A stretch of DNA of 13,444 nt from Escherichia coli (GTDB lineage: Bacteria > Pseudomonadota > Gammaproteobacteria > Enterobacterales > Enterobacteriaceae), in NCBI RefSeq assembly GCF_003334815.1, contig NZ_QOWO01000057.1, one strand, 5' to 3'. The translations under genes and the position numbers were made by a program. The notes beneath the pieces were generated by a model. That model searched no databases, was not told the origin of the DNA, and saw nothing but the letters and a program-made list of their open reading frames with translations. Positions 5,508 to 10,428 of this stretch are shown here, one piece after another. Numbering within the stretch: the stretch's first letter is position 1; the number at the start of each line of letters is the position of its first letter.

Positions 5508-6062
5508 ATGGCAAAGTACAACGAAAAAGAGCTGGCGGATACGAGCAAGTTTTTAAGTTTTGTCCTCCGACACAAACCGGAGGCGATTGGTATCGTACTG
5601 GACCGTGAAGGATGGGCGGATATCGATAAGCTCATACTTTGTGCCCAAAAAGCGGGCAAGCGGTTAACCCGTGCATTGCTGGATACCGTGGTTGCCACCA
5701 GCGATAAAAAGCGTTTTAGTTATTCCAGTGATGGTAGGTGCATCCGCGCGGTTCAGGGGCATTCGACTTCGCAGGTCGCTATTTCCTTTGCCGAAAAAAC
5801 ACCGCCACAGTTTCTCTACCACGGTACGGCAAGCCGTTTCCTTGACGAGATAAAAAAACAGGGGCTGATTGCAGGTGAGCGTCACTACGTACATCTCTCT
5901 GCTGATGAAGCAACGGCACGCAAAGTGGGAGCAAGACACGGATCGCCGGTTATTTTAACCGTCAAAGCACAGGAAATGGCGAAACGAGGCCTCCCTTTCT
6001 GGCAAGCGGAAAACGGGGTCTGGCTGACATCAACGGTTGCGGTCGAATTTCTTGAGTGGTAA
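5508..6062 (+). CDS. kptA: RNA 2'-phosphotransferase KptA (Tpt1 family)
   Basis: 184-aa [45 protein letters not shown]... typical of Tpt1/KptA. The 3' end overlaps the yjiJ 3' end by 33 nt (convergent). Confidence 0.9.
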
Positions 6063-7253
6063 GGGAAACACTCCCCATGAAGTGACCACTTGCAGCTTAA
6101 ATAATTGTACTGTGCTGATAAGCGCAGCAATAAACAACGCCGCCGCGCCGCAGAGAGTGGCGCCGGCAAGCGCCGATGTTCCATTGCCGAGCATACTGGT
6201 CAGCGCCGGGCCGAGGATTTGTCCAATGCCGTAAATGAGCGTCACAAAGCCTAAAAGATTGAGATTTCCCGGTACGCTCAGTTGGCGGGCGATAGTCATC
6301 ACCAGAGATGTCGTGCCCATAAAGGTACCGCCAAAACCAAGACTGCTGATGATAAGCAAGAGAGGCGAGTCGCTGGCGAGAGTAAGCAGCACACAGATAG
6401 CCTGCACCAGCAAATTCGCCGTCAGGCAGGGCAAAGCCCCCCAACGTTTTGCTGCCCATAGCCAGCCAAAGCAACCAGGCACAATTGATAAGCCGACTAA
6501 CGTCCAGAGATGGGCGGTTAACAATGGTGAGCCTGCATCTTTCGCCATGAGCGGCAGGTAAGTCGCGACGATGATATAACCAAATCCCGCCAGGCCGTAC
6601 AGAATAGCCAGTAACCACCAGCTCATTATCTGTTGCTCCGTTTTTGCCAATGGCATTGGTGTGATGGCGTGTTTTTTCGAGGGCATTAAAAGCGTAAGTG
6701 CAATCAGCATCATGCCAGAAAGCGCCCCGGCGCCTTGCCATAACGTTTGCGAGGAGAGGTCAAAATGCAGGCCTGCCAGAACATATTCATTGCCCAGTGC
6801 GATGCCAATGCCAACGCCAGAAAACAAAGCTGCCAGCACAAAAGGATGGCGCGTGTGCTGCATAATCAGCGTCGAACCAAAAATCAGCATACCGGCGCTG
6901 GCGACACCCGCCAGGACGCGAATCAATAACACCAGAATAAATGGCAGCAACCATGCCATTGCGAGGATCAACAACCCGCTCGCCAGGGCAGAAGCCAACA
7001 GAAATGGGCGCAGGCGCGATGGCTGGTGAAATGCGCCAAACGAAAATAGCAGACTGCCAGCCAGATACCCCGCATAGTTGCCGCTGGCAATCCACGAGAG
7101 CTGGCTAAATGAAAACGATCCTTCCGCCATCATGACGGGCAACATAGGCGTATAAAGGAAGCGGCCTAAACCCATACCTAAGGTCAGAACCAGCATCCCG
7201 AAAAGCGCGGTGCTGAAAGAAAAGCGTTCTACGGGATGCGAGGGCGAAGGCAT
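6030..7253 (-). CDS. yjiJ: Putative MFS-type inner membrane transporter YjiJ (DUF1228 family)
   Basis: 407-aa polytopic hydrophobic ORF; AAGG about 6 nt upstream of the ATG at 7253. The true start may lie further downstream. Confidence 0.75.
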
Positions 7254-7320
7254 GTTTAACCTTGTTTGTCATTTTTGTTGTTAACAAGTTAATAACAAAA
7301 AGGTGAAACATGCCAGCCTG

Positions 7321-8181
7321 TTAATGCGATGATTGAGGGGTAAAGCGATAAAAACGATTTGGTTCGCTAACGATATAAATATTACCTGAGGCATCCATCG
7401 CAACCCCTTCGGCCTGTTTGATGTTATGCGACAAACCTCGACTGCCTTTGGTTAGTGACATTTCACCTATAACCTCGCCAGCCAGCGTTACTTCCTGGAG
7501 TGCGCGAGATTCATGAGACAGCACCAGAAGCGTATTTTTTTGTTGGTTAAATTCTGCGCCGGACACATCATCTAAAGTAAATTGCCGTTGTAGTGCCTTG
7601 TCTTTGCTGATGTGCAATTCATTGCTACTTAACAGCCCGTTAACTTTGTAGACCTCAATCGGGTTTTTCTCTTTAAAAAACCAGAAAGTGTGATCCTGGC
7701 GAGAATAGGCCAATCCTTCAAAACCGCAATTGGTTGGGGATTCCTGCAGCGGGATTTTTATTTTTTTGAGGATTTTTACTTCCGAGTTTGGGGTCAGTGA
7801 AATCACATAAATGGCATAATCGCGCTCATCGCTAATGACAAACTGATTATCGCCAATGTATTCGATCGTCTCGAGATCCTTAACAAAATCCAGAGGAATT
7901 GTGCGGATCAAATCGCCATTGGTGGTCATTTCAACAATGGCGGCAGGTTTGTTGATAGTGCTAAAAAGAGTATTGCTTTGTGCCGACCAGGTCAGCGAAG
8001 AGATATTATTCGTTATGCCTGCAATTTCTTTGCCGTCAATGGTGGCGTGGTAATTCTGAAATGATGCTGCATGATTGCTTTTACGGGCGCAAGATTGCAC
8101 GAAGAAAGTACACACTGCCACAATGACAAAAAGAATCACAATAACGAAGATGCGTTTACTTAACGAAATACTTTTTGTCAC
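7321..8181 (-). CDS. yjiK: YjiK, SdiA-regulated family protein (predicted beta-propeller-like, N-terminal signal/anchor)
   Basis: A GTG start at 8181 gives 286 aa beginning [28 protein letters not shown] (positive n-region then hydrophobic segment), with AAAGGGA 7 nt upstream. The 323-aa track ORF extends 37 codons further to an ATG at 8292, overlapping the upstream small ORF. Confidence 0.7.
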
Positions 8182-8503: not shown

Positions 8504-9267
8504 GCGCGTTTTCTCTGCCGCTGACCGATCACCGCCGCGCCAATTGCACCAGCGAATTGCGCATCAGGGTGAGTTTGTACCGGCATTCCCAGATGGCTTT
8601 CCAGCATGTGGGTAAACCTTTGACAGTGGCTAACGCCACCAGTAAACAGAATCGGCGCTTCACAGGAGAGACGAGCAATGAAATTGGCGCTCCGCCGCGC
8701 CATCGCGTTAATCACTCCGGCGAGAATCGCTTCTGGCGCTACGCCCGCAGAGCGCAGGCTGATCACTTCTGATTCAGCAAACACTGTGCACATACTCGTG
8801 ATGGCGTGCGGTATGACATTTTCGGTAATGCTGTCGAGTTGCTCGACGCTGGTGCCAAGCGTGCGCGAGATCACCTCCAGGAAACGCCCGGTGCCCGCCG
8901 CGCATTTGTCATTCATCAGGAAATCGCACAGGTTACCGTCATCATCAAGCTGAATCACTTTGCTGTCCTGACCACCGATGTCGATTACCGCGCGCGTTGC
9001 TGGCTCAAGAAACCGTGCGCCCAGCCCGTGACAGGAGATTTCCGTCACTTGTTTATCGGCAAAATCCACCAGTTGCCGTCCGTAGCCGGTGAGCGTCAGA
9101 AACGGCGTTGTCTCTAACCCTTCGCGCAGAGTTTCCCAGGCTTCAGTAATTGCTGTTGCCGGGCGAAAGGGTGTTGGAACGAGGAAACGGCGCGTAATCA
9201 CGCCGTCAGCCAGTAAGATTCCTTTGGTGGCGGTTGAGCCGGAATCAATGCCAATCGAATATGTCAC
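8500..9267 (-). CDS. yjiL: YjiL, ASKHA-fold ATPase of the BadF/BadG/BcrA/BcrD (HgdC-like activase) family
   Basis: N-terminal IGIDSGSTATKGILL nucleotide-binding motif and the activase signature CAAGTGRFLE. The GTG at 9267 (255 aa) is preferred because AAGGAG lies 5 nt upstream; the track start at 9273 has no spacing to that Shine-Dalgarno. Confidence 0.8.
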   Translation of the reverse strand: MTYSIGIDSGSTATKGILLADGVITRRFLVPTPFRPATAITEAWETLREGLETTPFLTLTGYGRQLVDFADKQVTEISCHGLGARFLEPATRAVIDIGGQDSKVIQLDDDGNLCDFLMNDKCAAGTGRFLEVISRTLGTSVEQLDSITENVIPHAITSMCTVFAESEVISLRSAGVAPEAILAGVINAMARRSANFIARLSCEAPILFTGGVSHCQRFTHMLESHLGMPVQTHPDAQFAGAIGAAVIGQRQRKRA

Positions 9268-9276
9268 TGCCACTCC

Positions 9277-10428
9277 TTACAGCATCTCAATAAAGGCCGC
9301 GACACGGGTGCTGAGCTGCCCGACATCCGAGGTGGAGTAGTCTGTTTCAATAGCGATATAAGGAATGTTGTGCTGCTGGCGCACATGACGTTTAATCGCC
9401 AGCGATTCCACCGCGTAGGTATGGCACGCCTGCAAAATCACATCAACTACGCCATCGACCTGATATTCTTCAACCATCTGGCTGAGCATTTGCAGGCGCT
9501 GATCGTTCGGCGAAACACAGGAGCAGCCAATCGCCAGATATTTATCCGCCAGCGCGTCGTACACATCACCCGTTTCCGCCACGCATTGCTCGGTGGCTTT
9601 CGCCCCGGTGCAGTTTTCATAACCGACAACCCAGCCGCCATTCTCTTCAATCGCGCGCACCACTTTCTCTGCTGCGCCGCCAATTGGGCAGCCGGTGATT
9701 AAAATACGTGGGCGCGGGTCCAGTCGCTGGCCTTCTTCCCACTGCTGACGAACGCGGGCGGTCATTGCATCCAGTTCATTGATCAACGCCTCTTTATCGA
9801 ACCGGAAGGTTGCGCCGTAGACTACTTTCAGAATGTCGCTGCCGCTAAGCGCTGGAGGATTTAACTGCCCCAAATGATAAAAGTTGGCCAGTGCGCGACG
9901 TTCGCGGTTTTTCAGCGCAATGGCATCGCGCAGAGCATCTTCGCTAATCTCGTGCCCAAAACGTTCTTCTACCGTTTTTTGCAAGCGCAGCATCTCGGCT
10001 TTCCATAATGCACGCGAGGCATCGTCCTTAACGCTGTTTGGCAGTTGCATCACATGAACGGGCTTAAACTCCGCCATGTATTCATACATTTTCTTTTTGC
10101 CGTCGCAGGTGGTTTCACCGACCACCAGATCCGAAAAGTAGAAGTAGGGGCATTTATCGGTTTTGCCGAAGCCGTAGCTACTTTTAATCAGCGGGCAGAG
10201 GTTGCGCGGCAGATCTTTCTCCGCTTCTTCAATGGTTTCATCAGAGGTGGAACAGAGCGAAACCACAACCGCACCGGCTGCCATCGGGATCTCTTGCGGC
10301 ATAAAGGTGCAGTAAGTGCCAACCAGCGGAATGCCGCGCTCCTTGAGATCCATGACGGTGAGAAAGCCTTTCTGGCGAGCTTCAGAGAACTGATCGAAAA
10401 TGGCGGGTAGATCGGTGACAAGTGACAT
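9277..10428 (-). CDS. yjiM: YjiM, 2-hydroxyglutaryl-CoA dehydratase D-component-like protein (HgdB-like family)
   Basis: 383 aa from the ATG at 10428 (MSLVTDLPAIF...), with a strong GGAAGGA Shine-Dalgarno 5 nt upstream; the track ORF starts 7 codons earlier at a GTG. Cysteine-containing motifs present. Only 9 nt separate its stop from the yjiL start. Confidence 0.8.
   Translation of the reverse strand: MSLVTDLPAIFDQFSEARQKGFLTVMDLKERGIPLVGTYCTFMPQEIPMAAGAVVVSLCSTSDETIEEAEKDLPRNLCPLIKSSYGFGKTDKCPYFYFSDLVVGETTCDGKKKMYEYMAEFKPVHVMQLPNSVKDDASRALWKAEMLRLQKTVEERFGHEISEDALRDAIALKNRERRALANFYHLGQLNPPALSGSDILKVVYGATFRFDKEALINELDAMTARVRQQWEEGQRLDPRPRILITGCPIGGAAEKVVRAIEENGGWVVGYENCTGAKATEQCVAETGDVYDALADKYLAIGCSCVSPNDQRLQMLSQMVEEYQVDGVVDVILQACHTYAVESLAIKRHVRQQHNIPYIAIETDYSTSDVGQLSTRVAAFIEML

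Follow-up and report, generated by a model that had tools for sequence, protein, structure and literature searches.

The 4.4-kb stretch carrying yjiM, yjiL, ytiA, yjiK and yjiJ in Escherichia coli is best read as a mosaic of three neighboring modules in the same orientation, each controlled separately, rather than as one functional operon, a reading to which we assign a probability of roughly 0.68. The DNA analysed here (the window, 13,444 nucleotides) represents the E. coli chromosome, its positions 5900-10600 matching 5395 of 5426 complete E. coli genomes, and the RefSeq annotation places the five genes on it in the order yjiM-yjiL-ytiA-yjiK-yjiJ, all on the minus strand. A sequence-only reading had described this order and orientation, with gaps of 9 bp (yjiM-yjiL), -4 bp (yjiL-ytiA, an ATGA overlap), 64 bp (ytiA-yjiK) and 67 bp (yjiK-yjiJ) and without an intrinsic terminator between the genes, and had taken the stretch to be probably one unit under the same control. 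These observations proved exact: in a consensus scan, no terminator-like site was found in any intergenic gap from yjiM to yjiJ, weak ones lying in coding sequence only (8702-8685, 7700-7680, 6992-6975, 6900-6885, 6151-6134 and 6084-6069), and structure in the ytiA-yjiK gap is at chance level (z = 0.31). The interpretation drawn from them, in contrast, is for the most part unsupported.

The upstream module, yjiM-yjiL-ytiA, encodes a double-cubane-cluster reductase driven by ATP, together with its ATPase and a small protein of the DUF3343 type. yjiM (9277-10428, minus strand) encodes a double-cubane-cluster reductase of the HGD-D family (RefSeq; NCBIfam NF040772, 532 bits, cut-off 350), previously described as a putative double-cubane-cluster protein (PMC7317905). 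Its partner YjiL (8500-9267, minus strand) is an ATP-dependent activator/reductase ATPase (TIGR00241, 358 bits, cut-off 125), and 77 of 80 species loci have its gene 3' of yjiM in the same orientation. The small open reading frame that follows is ytiA (8246-8503, minus strand; b4715 in K-12), which encodes an 85-aa DUF3343/Se_S_carrier-like protein (Pfam PF11823, E = 6e-14); its ATG overlaps the yjiL stop codon, and it stands directly after yjiL in all 57 scorable gammaproteobacterial species loci, the trio being invariant. Given the 9-bp gap and the ATGA overlap, translation of the three genes is probably coupled. Their transcription would start from a conserved promoter immediately 5' of yjiM, in a promoter and leader region (10434-10509, minus strand) that comprises the motif GAGATCAA (10509-10502), the -10 region GGTAATAATG (10481-10472) and the leader stem ATCTCCCGTGGTACGGGG beside the Shine-Dalgarno sequence (10456-10434). 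This region is near-invariant across Enterobacteriaceae whatever the upstream gene, with a perfect TATAAT in most species.

Were the five genes a single operon, yjiK and yjiJ transcripts would arise chiefly by read-through from the yjiM promoter, and the secreted propeller and the transporter would handle uptake and processing for the cytoplasmic reductase. Co-orientation and the short gaps free of terminator-like sites favor such an arrangement, as does the same complete gene order in Escherichia, C. amalonaticus/farmeri, Intestinirhabdus and one relative whose YjiK is 76% identical, but this order is limited to that small clade. The co-occurrence of yjiK and yjiJ with yjiML, proposed as a check, fails across genomes: among the 57 species loci having the trio plus enough downstream sequence, only 4 keep both genes directly behind it; yjiK alone is present in 2, yjiJ alone in another 2, and both are missing from the remaining 49. 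In 36 of the loci, the next gene is on the opposite strand. Conversely, the yjiK-yjiJ pair occurs without yjiML-ytiA in Citrobacter rodentium and in a metagenomic relative, and a lone yjiK is found after yjiN. Even within E. coli, 640 of the 5426 complete genomes (12%) have the effector gene espX6 separating ytiA from yjiK, with a GC-rich terminator-like hairpin between espX6 and yjiK in the single espX6 locus scanned; in the two espX6 loci compared, identity is 83-90% for the yjiK and yjiJ alleles, versus 99% for yjiM and 95% for yjiL. The shared control is further contradicted by signals described below, namely an RpoD-holoenzyme site detected in vitro between yjiL and yjiK, an ArcA ChIP-seq site before yjiJ and a yjiK promoter motif that is kept whatever stands upstream. 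We thus regard the single operon as improbable. In K-12-type strains, some transcription from the yjiM promoter could physically run on into yjiK-yjiJ, since the 64-bp gap holds no terminator, and this would represent an accident of adjacency rather than design.

yjiK (7321-8181, minus strand) encodes a periplasmic protein, a predicted lipoprotein beta-propeller of the YjiK/CarP family (Pfam PF06977, E = 4e-95) with an additional weak Phytase-like match; it is listed as a predicted lipoprotein in PMC7139219, and the structure of residues 34-286 has been solved (3QQZ). Its GTG start at 8181, as the sequence-only reading had supposed, is the RefSeq start. From this start, the promoter had been argued to lie inside the small open reading frame, favoring read-through from upstream; instead, the 64-bp gap contains a conserved activator box and -10 element (8249-8219), the first TTAAG being the only part that reaches into the ytiA stop codon. 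The box is a PmrA/BasR-type direct repeat, TTAAGGATTCATTAAG (8234-8249, minus strand), of the form TTAAG-N6-TTAAG, the single perfect copy of this pattern in the whole window, and it is followed by a predicted -10 hexamer, TATACT (8219-8224, minus strand), which would set the transcription start near 8212, about 30 nt before the GTG. We propose that yjiK is transcribed from this promoter of its own, the direct repeat 9 bp upstream of TATACT substituting for a -35 element.

Conservation of the promoter does not depend on its neighbors. In 13 upstream contexts with otherwise unrelated flanks, in which yjiK follows ytiA, espX6, DUF2164, yjiN or opposite-strand genes, the elements TTAAG, (T/G)TAAG and (T)ATA(C/A)T are invariant, and the -10 hexamer lies 9-10 bp past the second repeat in all 13, the same spacing as for the TAAAAT of arnB. 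The yjiK box aligns column for column with the BasR/PmrA-dependent K-12 arnB promoter, and the eptA promoter carries the same box, while more distant YjiK homologues (40-50% identity) lack it. Phosphorylated BasR (PmrA) is therefore the predicted activator of yjiK, responding to Fe, Zn, Al or mild acid. In Pseudomonas aeruginosa, the box TTAAG(N)6TTAAG, overlapping the -35 element, defines BqsR sites (PMC4358008); carO and carP belong to the BqsR regulon, PA14_04270 being carP as judged from gene numbering, and CarP homologues are SdiA-regulated-domain proteins. BqsR/CarR would thus drive the yjiK homologue carP through the same box. As for SdiA itself, dependence on which had been proposed as a check, no SdiA-box-like motif is found upstream of yjiK, and "SdiA-regulated" is only the Pfam family name.

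If the yjiK promoter were constitutive, or responded not to BasR but to its paralogue QseB, for example, or to some further factor, the resemblance to a PmrA box would be a coincidence or a mark of shared ancestry. Shimada et al. list a "constitutive" promoter for yjiK, based on binding of RpoD holoenzyme between yjiL and yjiK in vitro (PMC3946193). The element that they assigned to this SELEX site is a promoter-like CTGACC-19-TTCAAT inside ytiA (8335-8365, minus strand; TACAAT in K-12), although the method cannot resolve it from the TATACT promoter, which lies some 120 bp downstream. Besides, each yjiK half-site departs by one position from the canonical CTTAAG-N5-xTTAAT (PMC3973317), the two hexamers opening with G and A where C/T is canonical, and the searchable literature holds no meaningful co-mention of yjiK with BasR, PmrA or arnB. 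Against these points, the repeat, its 11-bp period and the distance to the -10 match the BasR promoters of arnB and eptA in the same genome, and the Pseudomonas homologue is governed by the same box. To our knowledge, TTAAG repeats make up no other OmpR-family box in E. coli. We consider a non-BasR promoter unlikely. An intragenic sigma-54 motif, ACGGCAAAGAAATTGCA (8020-8036, minus strand), also lies within yjiK and corresponds to the ChIP-seq site IS54 (PMC4591121).

yjiJ (6030-7253, minus strand) encodes an MFS_4-family transporter of 407 aa, compared with 392 aa in K-12, whose orthologues carry PF06779/PF07690. Its end at 6030 is strain-specific: the K-12 stop codon TGA reads TGG in the window (6077-6075), so that yjiJ is here 15 aa longer and overlaps kptA. 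In most genomes carrying both genes, yjiK and yjiJ are adjacent with a 67-80-bp spacer, and because pair and spacer are conserved together, yjiJ would be transcribed at least partly with yjiK. The 10-bp palindrome TTGTTAACAA pointed out in this spacer is present at 7278-7287, but by itself it is not above chance, the window having 7 perfect 10-bp palindromes versus 12.8 +/- 3.7 in shuffled sequences. It belongs to two larger elements, being part of a 21-bp ArcA box and the tip of a 66-nt hairpin.

The ArcA box, TTGTTATTAACTTGTTAACAA (7278-7298, minus strand), is a direct repeat of TGTTA with the two copies centred 11 bp apart, and the 9 orthologous gaps compared all share the core TTGTT-N3-AA-N-TTGTTA without change. 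Park et al. (2013; Tables S1, S4 and S8) reported an ArcA ChIP-seq peak here in both replicates, with a 20.3-bit box at U00096.2 4560723-4560743; log2 expression of yjiJ, which they class as lowly expressed, was 6.61 in the wild type and 7.35 in the arcA mutant, a small change of 0.74. Occupied in vivo under anaerobiosis, the box would add a further layer of control on yjiJ.

The hairpin (7249-7314, minus strand) is an inverted repeat that fills the spacer and holds the yjiJ Shine-Dalgarno sequence (AAGG, 7263-7260) and ATG (7253-7251) in its 3' arm. Its folding energy is -32 kcal/mol (z = -6.9), none of 200 shuffled sequences being as stable, and it folds in all 9 short-gap orthologues. The outer helix covaries, with 77% of cells paired versus 22-49% in slid controls and both sides changed in 8 of 14 pairs, in a sample of 9 sequences that represent essentially two clades. 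By burying the Shine-Dalgarno sequence and the start codon, the hairpin may hold yjiJ translation from a bicistronic mRNA low.

Two other explanations of the spacer merit consideration. First, it may act at the DNA level only, as the operator through which ArcA controls a promoter specific to yjiJ, with the hairpin a by-product of A/T-rich repeats and yjiJ monocistronic, as Park et al. treat it. The ChIP-seq peak, the box score and the sequence conservation of the direct-repeat core fit this possibility, and in O157-type alleles the first repeat constitutes a sigma-70-like promoter (TTGTTA-17-AATAAT, 9/12), weaker in K-12-type alleles (TTGTTA-16-AAAAAT). However, these hexamers are not conserved in Citrobacter, yjiJ has no known transcription start site, and the outer helix, which lies outside the ArcA box, keeps its pairing through two-sided changes; together with the conserved adjacency of the pair, this makes a DNA-only role possible but rather doubtful. 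Second, a very stable stem directly 3' of the yjiK stop codon might terminate or stabilize the 3' end of yjiK mRNA, uncoupling yjiJ by ending or processing the transcript. We find this hard to favor, since the stem is followed by no U-tract on either strand, the terminator scan did not call it, and the yjiJ start signals in its 3' arm are a better fit to translational occlusion.

Occlusion of yjiJ by the hairpin would resemble the action of known ribosome-binding-site-occluding intercistronic hairpins in translational coupling or attenuation, in which the downstream Shine-Dalgarno sequence and AUG are likewise paired in a stable stem a few nucleotides past the upstream stop codon. The yjiK-yjiJ stem is, however, unusually long, at about 28 bp, and no more than the base of it would be melted by a ribosome that terminates there, which makes simple translational coupling at yjiJ doubtful. 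Seen as DNA, the same spacer shares with ArcA-P operators (Park et al., 2013) the two TGTTA copies with an 11-bp spacing of their centres and the ChIP-seq occupancy, and its 20.3 bits are the highest score among the rows of their table considered here. It differs in sitting within a 67-bp intercistronic spacer without a mapped promoter, where, at the RNA level, it also makes up the loop and the 5' arm of the hairpin.

For the reductase module, the closest parallels are DCCP and DCCP-R of Carboxydothermus hydrogenoformans and the activators of 2-hydroxyacyl-CoA dehydratase and benzoyl-CoA reductase, based on the NF040772 equivalog match of YjiM, the activase domain of YjiL and the adjacency of their genes. 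YjiM, in contrast, lacks the N-terminal channel-closing helices (PMC7317905), and in gammaproteobacteria a third gene, ytiA, is always next.

The predicted yjiK promoter follows the plan of the PmrA/BasR promoters of E. coli and Salmonella (arnB/pbgP, eptA/pmrC), with two TTAA(G/T) half-sites at an 11-bp period replacing the -35 element, 9-10 bp before an A/T-rich -10. It departs from arnB and eptA in the first base of its hexamers (G or A, not C or T) and in its product, which is no LPS-modifying enzyme, the BasR site itself being a prediction. With P. aeruginosa carP (PA0327), controlled by BqsSR/CarSR, yjiK shares the PF06977 family, the repeat placed over the -35 and, as predicted here, a metal-cation-sensing OmpR-family response regulator, whereas the regulator there is BqsR/CarR rather than PmrA and the two proteins are only distant relatives.

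The five minus-strand genes from yjiM to yjiJ are best read as a mosaic of three modules and not as one regulatory unit. Genome matching places positions 5900-10600 of the window in 5395 of 5426 complete E. coli genomes, with strain HS30-1 and a dozen more identical to this stretch at 100.0% (rounded), and the window differs from K-12 MG1655 at 221 positions across 5508-12999. RefSeq annotation carried over onto the window gives, all on the minus strand, mdtM (11865-13097), yjiN (10544-11824), yjiM (9277-10428), yjiL (8500-9267), ytiA (b4715; 8246-8503), yjiK (7321-8181) and yjiJ (6030-7253), with kptA (5508-6062) convergent with yjiJ. 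An earlier sequence-only reading had taken yjiM, yjiL, a small ORF (now ytiA), yjiK and yjiJ as one co-oriented unit, and the mapped annotation reproduces the gaps it claimed (9, -4, 64 and 67 bp). It had also seen no convincing terminator in any of the four gaps, and a terminator scan agrees, returning only weak sites within coding sequence. RNA structure in the 64-bp ytiA-yjiK gap is not above chance (z = 0.31). Within yjiK itself, a weak terminator-like stem of seven pairs, two of them G-U, is followed by TTTTTT (7675-7700, minus) and could cause partial termination inside the gene. At the far end of the locus, the yjiJ stop codon is TGG here and TGA in K-12 (6077-6075), such that the ORF runs 15 codons longer (6030-6077, minus), ends at 6030 and shares 33 bp with the 3' end of convergent kptA, where K-12 has a 12-bp gap; the closest-matching genomes (HS30-1 and a dozen more) carry the short yjiJ form in RefSeq.

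The products fall into recognizable families. YjiM reaches 532 bits, against a cut-off of 350, with the NCBIfam equivalog of double-cubane-cluster anaerobic reductases (NF040772), and YjiL, encoded next to it, reaches 358 bits, against a cut-off of 125, with the acyl-CoA-dehydratase-type activase model TIGR00241. A review of double-cubane enzymes counts YjiM as a member and treats YjiM/YjiL as a probable second enzyme class of this kind acting on a larger substrate (PMC7317905). The seven cysteines of YjiM follow the order of the review, with spacings of 18, 18, 29, 164, 28 or 30, and 32 or 30, which do not literally match the printed pattern CX19CX18-19CX29CX166-170CX32-34CX32C. YtiA is a DUF3343 or "Se/S carrier-like" protein (PF11823, E = 6e-14). 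YjiK matches PF06977 over its full length (E = 4e-95, profile positions 2-249 of 249), is listed among predicted lipoproteins (PMC7139219) and has a solved structure covering residues 34-286 (PDB 3QQZ). YjiJ orthologues carry MFS_4 and MFS_1 domains. In a few metagenome and Logan assemblies, a 393-aa ORF fuses the Se_S_carrier (YtiA) and SdiA-regulated (YjiK) domains (P0002-P0004 and P0024 of the homologue search); ytiA and yjiK lie in different frames here, so a fusion would need a frameshift in ytiA, and these ORFs are probably sequencing errors or rare variants. The "SdiA-regulated" family name was taken from Salmonella members of the family. For the SdiA-box-like consensus AAAAG-N8-GAAAA, two one-mismatch matches occur in the whole window, a chance-level count, and none lies upstream of yjiK.

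The distribution of the genes separates them clearly. A YjiM scan with one genome per species yielded 80 loci, onto which the E. coli proteins were mapped by tblastn with ORF clustering. In every scorable gammaproteobacterial locus, spanning Enterobacteriaceae, Hafnia, Morganella and Aeromonas, yjiM, yjiL and ytiA occur together with the same spacing, and the yjiM-yjiL pair is also found in Enterococcus and clostridia. Co-occurrence of yjiK and yjiJ with yjiML, which the sequence-only reading had proposed as a check on its unit, fails across this sample: of the loci mapped, 57 have 1.5 kb or more of sequence beyond ytiA, and both genes stand directly behind it in 4 of them, yjiK only in 2, yjiJ only in 2 and neither in 49; in 36 of these 49, the first downstream gene that reaches 100 aa runs in the opposite direction. 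Conversely, the yjiK-yjiJ pair is found without yjiML. In C. rodentium it follows three opposite-strand genes, with yjiML-ytiA absent within 8 kb; one relative (L098) has the order yjiN-DUF2164-yjiK-yjiJ without yjiML-ytiA, and another has yjiN-yjiK alone. In one C. amalonaticus strain, yjiK-yjiJ lies 4.4 kb off, again after three opposite-strand genes.

A break between the two blocks is also seen within E. coli. In 640 of 5426 complete genomes, including O157:H7, the type III effector gene espX6 (2.1-2.2 kb), encoding a pentapeptide-repeat protein, sits between ytiA and yjiK (6447-8633 in locus L002, 6294-8408 in L003; corresponding to about window position 8245), with the breakpoint exactly at the stop codon of ytiA. 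In the two espX6 loci compared, YjiK and YjiJ share only 83-90% identity with the alleles of the window, against 99% for YjiM and 95% for YjiL. Thus, breakpoint and allele divergence together indicate separate evolutionary histories for the yjiM-yjiL-ytiA trio and the yjiK-yjiJ block. The O157-type locus L002, the one scanned, has a GC-rich terminator-like hairpin between espX6 and yjiK. In L002 and L003 alike, kptA downstream of yjiJ is replaced by the inverse autotransporter gene iatD.

The trio itself appears to begin at yjiM. The promoter and leader in the 115-bp yjiN-yjiM gap (10434-10509, minus) are near-invariant in Enterobacteriaceae whatever gene lies upstream, which places the start of the trio at yjiM and not at yjiN. 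The conserved layout (loci L004-L047) consists of GAGATCAA, about 20 bp, TATAAT, CTTTTCAT, ATCTCCCGTGTTACGGGGAAGGAAAA and ATG; the E. coli -10 element is degenerate (GGTAATAATG, 10481-10472). An inverted repeat, GGGAGAT/ATCTCCC, flanks the -10 of the conserved layout, and a short leader stem abuts the yjiM Shine-Dalgarno sequence. Inspection by eye of the region upstream of yjiM gave no convincing match to an FNR-type site. Between yjiN and yjiM, Citrobacter, Klebsiella, Raoultella, Kluyvera and others carry a 79-aa DUF2164 gene (for instance L007 1019-1258, L086 5372-5611 and L096 68-307), which E. coli, with its 115-bp gap, does not have. The Klebsiella oxytoca group (L013, L019, L030, L037 and L038) has yjiN-mdtM, two opposite-strand genes and then yjiM, where E. 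coli has mdtM-yjiN-yjiM; the neighbourhood upstream of yjiM therefore varies as much as the one downstream.

A conserved putative promoter lies in front of yjiK as well. When the regions upstream of this gene were aligned across 13 contexts from Escherichia, Citrobacter, Superficieibacter, Intestinirhabdus and relatives, a single block, invariant in all 13, stood out amid differing flanks: TTAAG-N6-(T/G)TAAG, 9-10 bp, and (T)ATA(C/A)T. Its copy in the window comprises the direct repeat TTAAGGATTCATTAAG (8249-8234, minus), whose first TTAAG alone reaches into the stop codon of ytiA, and the -10 TATACT of the predicted promoter (8224-8219, minus), giving a predicted transcription start near 8212. 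The remainder of the block and the predicted start fall within the 64-bp gap, the start about 30 nt ahead of the GTG at 8181, a position that supports this start codon for yjiK, as the sequence-only reading had considered. The corollary it drew, that the promoter would then have to lie inside the small ORF, is answered by the same placement. A longer, 323-aa form of YjiK from the ATG at 8292 was rejected, because the ORF would then begin ahead of the conserved promoter and overlap ytiA. Shimada et al. reported an in vitro RpoD-holoenzyme SELEX site between yjiL and yjiK (PMC3946193), which provides independent in vitro support for a promoter in this interval; their guessed promoter hexamers fall inside ytiA (8365-8335). 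The supplements of the SMRT-Cappable-seq work contain neither the gene names nor the coordinates of this locus. Inside yjiK, a sigma-54 site, ACGGCAAAGAAATTGCA (8036-8020, minus), corresponds to the ChIP-seq site IS54 (PMC4591121) and lies on the sense strand, 767 bp upstream of yjiJ.

The 67-bp yjiK-yjiJ spacer carries signals of its own. The 10-bp palindrome that the sequence-only reading pointed out there, TTGTTAACAA, is present at 7278-7287, yet means little on its own, since perfect 10-bp palindromes are not enriched in the window (7, against 12.8 +/- 3.7 in shuffles). Across nine aligned spacers, the invariant core is TTGTT-N3-AA-N-TTGTTA, and TGTTA-N6-TGTTA at 7297-7282 forms two direct repeats spaced 11 bp centre to centre. 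Park et al. (2013) annotated an ArcA box at this place, TTGTTATTAACTTGTTAACAA (U00096.2 4560723-4560743, equal to window 7298-7278), scoring 20.3 bits, with 10.9 and 11.7 bits for the individual repeats. Their ChIP-seq data show an ArcA peak upstream of yjiJ in both replicates (4560669 and 4560714; 2.8-fold), and the log2 expression of yjiJ was 6.61 in the wild type and 7.35 in the arcA mutant; they place the gene with the lowly expressed operons that lack a known transcription start. The idea that the spacer holds a conserved sigma-70 promoter of yjiJ was rejected: 9 of 12 positions match in the O157-type allele only and 8 of 12 in the K-12-type, and the match is not conserved in Citrobacter. 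Such a promoter figures here only in the speculative extension given below.

The palindrome proved to sit at the tip of an inverted repeat of 66 nt (7249-7314). As RNA, this repeat folds at -32 kcal/mol (z = -6.9; -25 kcal/mol for the K-12 version), and its 3' arm holds both the Shine-Dalgarno sequence of yjiJ (AAGG, 7263-7260) and the ATG (7253-7251). The hairpin is kept in nine orthologous spacers, though the sequences of the outer stem differ. Among these nine, which represent about two clades, outer-helix pairing reaches 77% of cells, against 22-49% in controls with the partner column shifted, and both sides have changed in 8 of 14 outer-helix pairs; the nine sequences contain 18 doubly changed cells, against 7.8 +/- 2.1 in shuffles, and none of 500 shuffles reaches 18. 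No Rfam family passes its gathering threshold anywhere in the window, and at E <= 5 the hairpin draws just chance matches to miRNA-hairpin models and CrcZ. An intrinsic terminator was tried as an explanation of the stem, which is not a canonical one, as no U-tract follows it (the tail reads CCUUCGCCCUCG), and the terminator scan does not call it. Simple translational coupling between yjiK and yjiJ is likewise doubtful, because the main stem, about 28 bp long, begins 7 nt past the stop codon, where a terminating ribosome would melt no more than its base. The spacer is thus both a DNA signal occupied experimentally by ArcA and an RNA structure backed by covariation.

Taken together, these observations divide the locus as follows. 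The yjiM promoter would drive yjiM-yjiL-ytiA; a BasR-type promoter would drive yjiK and run on into yjiJ; and the ArcA box with the RBS-hiding hairpin would form a third control element ahead of yjiJ. From the idea of one unit under one control, the shared strand, the short gaps and the lack of terminators stand; the implied lack of internal promoters and regulator sites and the conservation of gene order do not. Single control is contradicted by the conserved box and -10 before yjiK, the RpoD SELEX site between yjiL and yjiK and the ArcA ChIP site before yjiJ. Between ytiA and yjiK, K-12-type strains have nothing to halt RNA polymerase, and a five-gene transcript may therefore be made. The distribution across species, the conserved promoter inside the locus and the regulator sites argue for mere adjacency of the trio and yjiK rather than a shared programme.

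A more speculative extension, unlikely to hold as a whole, is that the same 66 nt serve twice, as an ArcA operator in DNA and as a hairpin burying the yjiJ ribosome-binding site in RNA. The TGTTA repeats, when transcribed, may form the 5' arm and loop of the hairpin, and YjiJ may be made only from transcripts that start within the spacer and lack this arm. ArcA-P may then shut this spacer-internal start under low oxygen, and transcripts from the BasR-type yjiK promoter may carry a translationally silent yjiJ. If so, translational competence would depend on the promoter used, metal/envelope (BasSR) and redox (ArcBA) signals would converge on a two-gene envelope module, and YjiK, a CarP homologue, would join the E. 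coli BasR regulon.

Each of the five genes carries an annotation yet is a functionally uncharacterised "y-gene", and a one-operon view would misdirect functional work on them, for example toward a search for some substrate that YjiJ imports and YjiML processes. Comparison across genomes suggests instead that YjiM-YjiL-YtiA be treated as a self-contained unit, the enteric version of the double-cubane reductase system with a small DUF3343 protein as invariant partner, and YjiK-YjiJ as a module of the envelope, linked with metal stress through BasSR and with redox through ArcA. For annotation in general, a row of same-strand genes with short, terminator-free gaps is not enough to establish a regulatory unit. 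The genes themselves, the ArcA site and the assignment to double-cubane enzymes had been recorded before. What appears new, as far as checked, is the clean split into modules with its espX6 breakpoint, the predicted BasR/PmrA-type yjiK promoter with its parallel to Pseudomonas carP, and the covarying hairpin sequestering the yjiJ ribosome-binding site.

The prediction for yjiK draws on its likeness to known systems. The box of PmrA, the regulator named BasR in E. coli, consists of CTTAAG and xTTAAT with 5 bp between them (PMC3973317). The window half-sites GTTAAG and ATTAAG (8250-8234) stand head to tail, also 5 bp apart (GATTC), the first having G for C and the second ending in G, like the K. 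pneumoniae CCTAAG. Set against the K-12 arnB promoter, CTTAAGGTTAAGTTAAT-N10-TAAAAT, the yjiK block matches column for column, differing in the distance from the box to the -10 (9 bp to TATACT at yjiK, 10 bp to TAAAAT in arnB). At yjiK the box occupies the position of a -35 element, and it is also found in the eptA promoter, as CTTAAGGTTGGCTTAAT. The literature search found no searchable paper tying yjiK to BasR, PmrA or arnB, and the supplements of one QseBC/PmrAB paper contain nothing on such a link. In P. aeruginosa, BqsR (also called CarR) binds TTAAG(N)6TTAAG at a site overlapping the -35 element (PMC4358008), and its regulon takes in carO and carP; CarP homologues are "SdiA-regulated domain" proteins, that is, the YjiK family. 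In six loci encoding YjiK homologues of greater distance (40-50% identity), the upstream region lacks the box, which makes the box specific to Escherichia/Citrobacter-type orthologues and, from the literature, Pseudomonas carP. On the arnB alignment, the eptA box, the PmrA box definition and the BqsR-carP parallel, we predict that yjiK is activated by BasR(PmrA). Such a promoter would point to definite inducing conditions for YjiK, whose structure is solved but which has no function assigned, and would tie the E. coli protein to CarP, the Ca/Fe-responsive virulence modulator of Pseudomonas; if confirmed, it would also bring into the polymyxin-resistance regulon a member not engaged in LPS modification.
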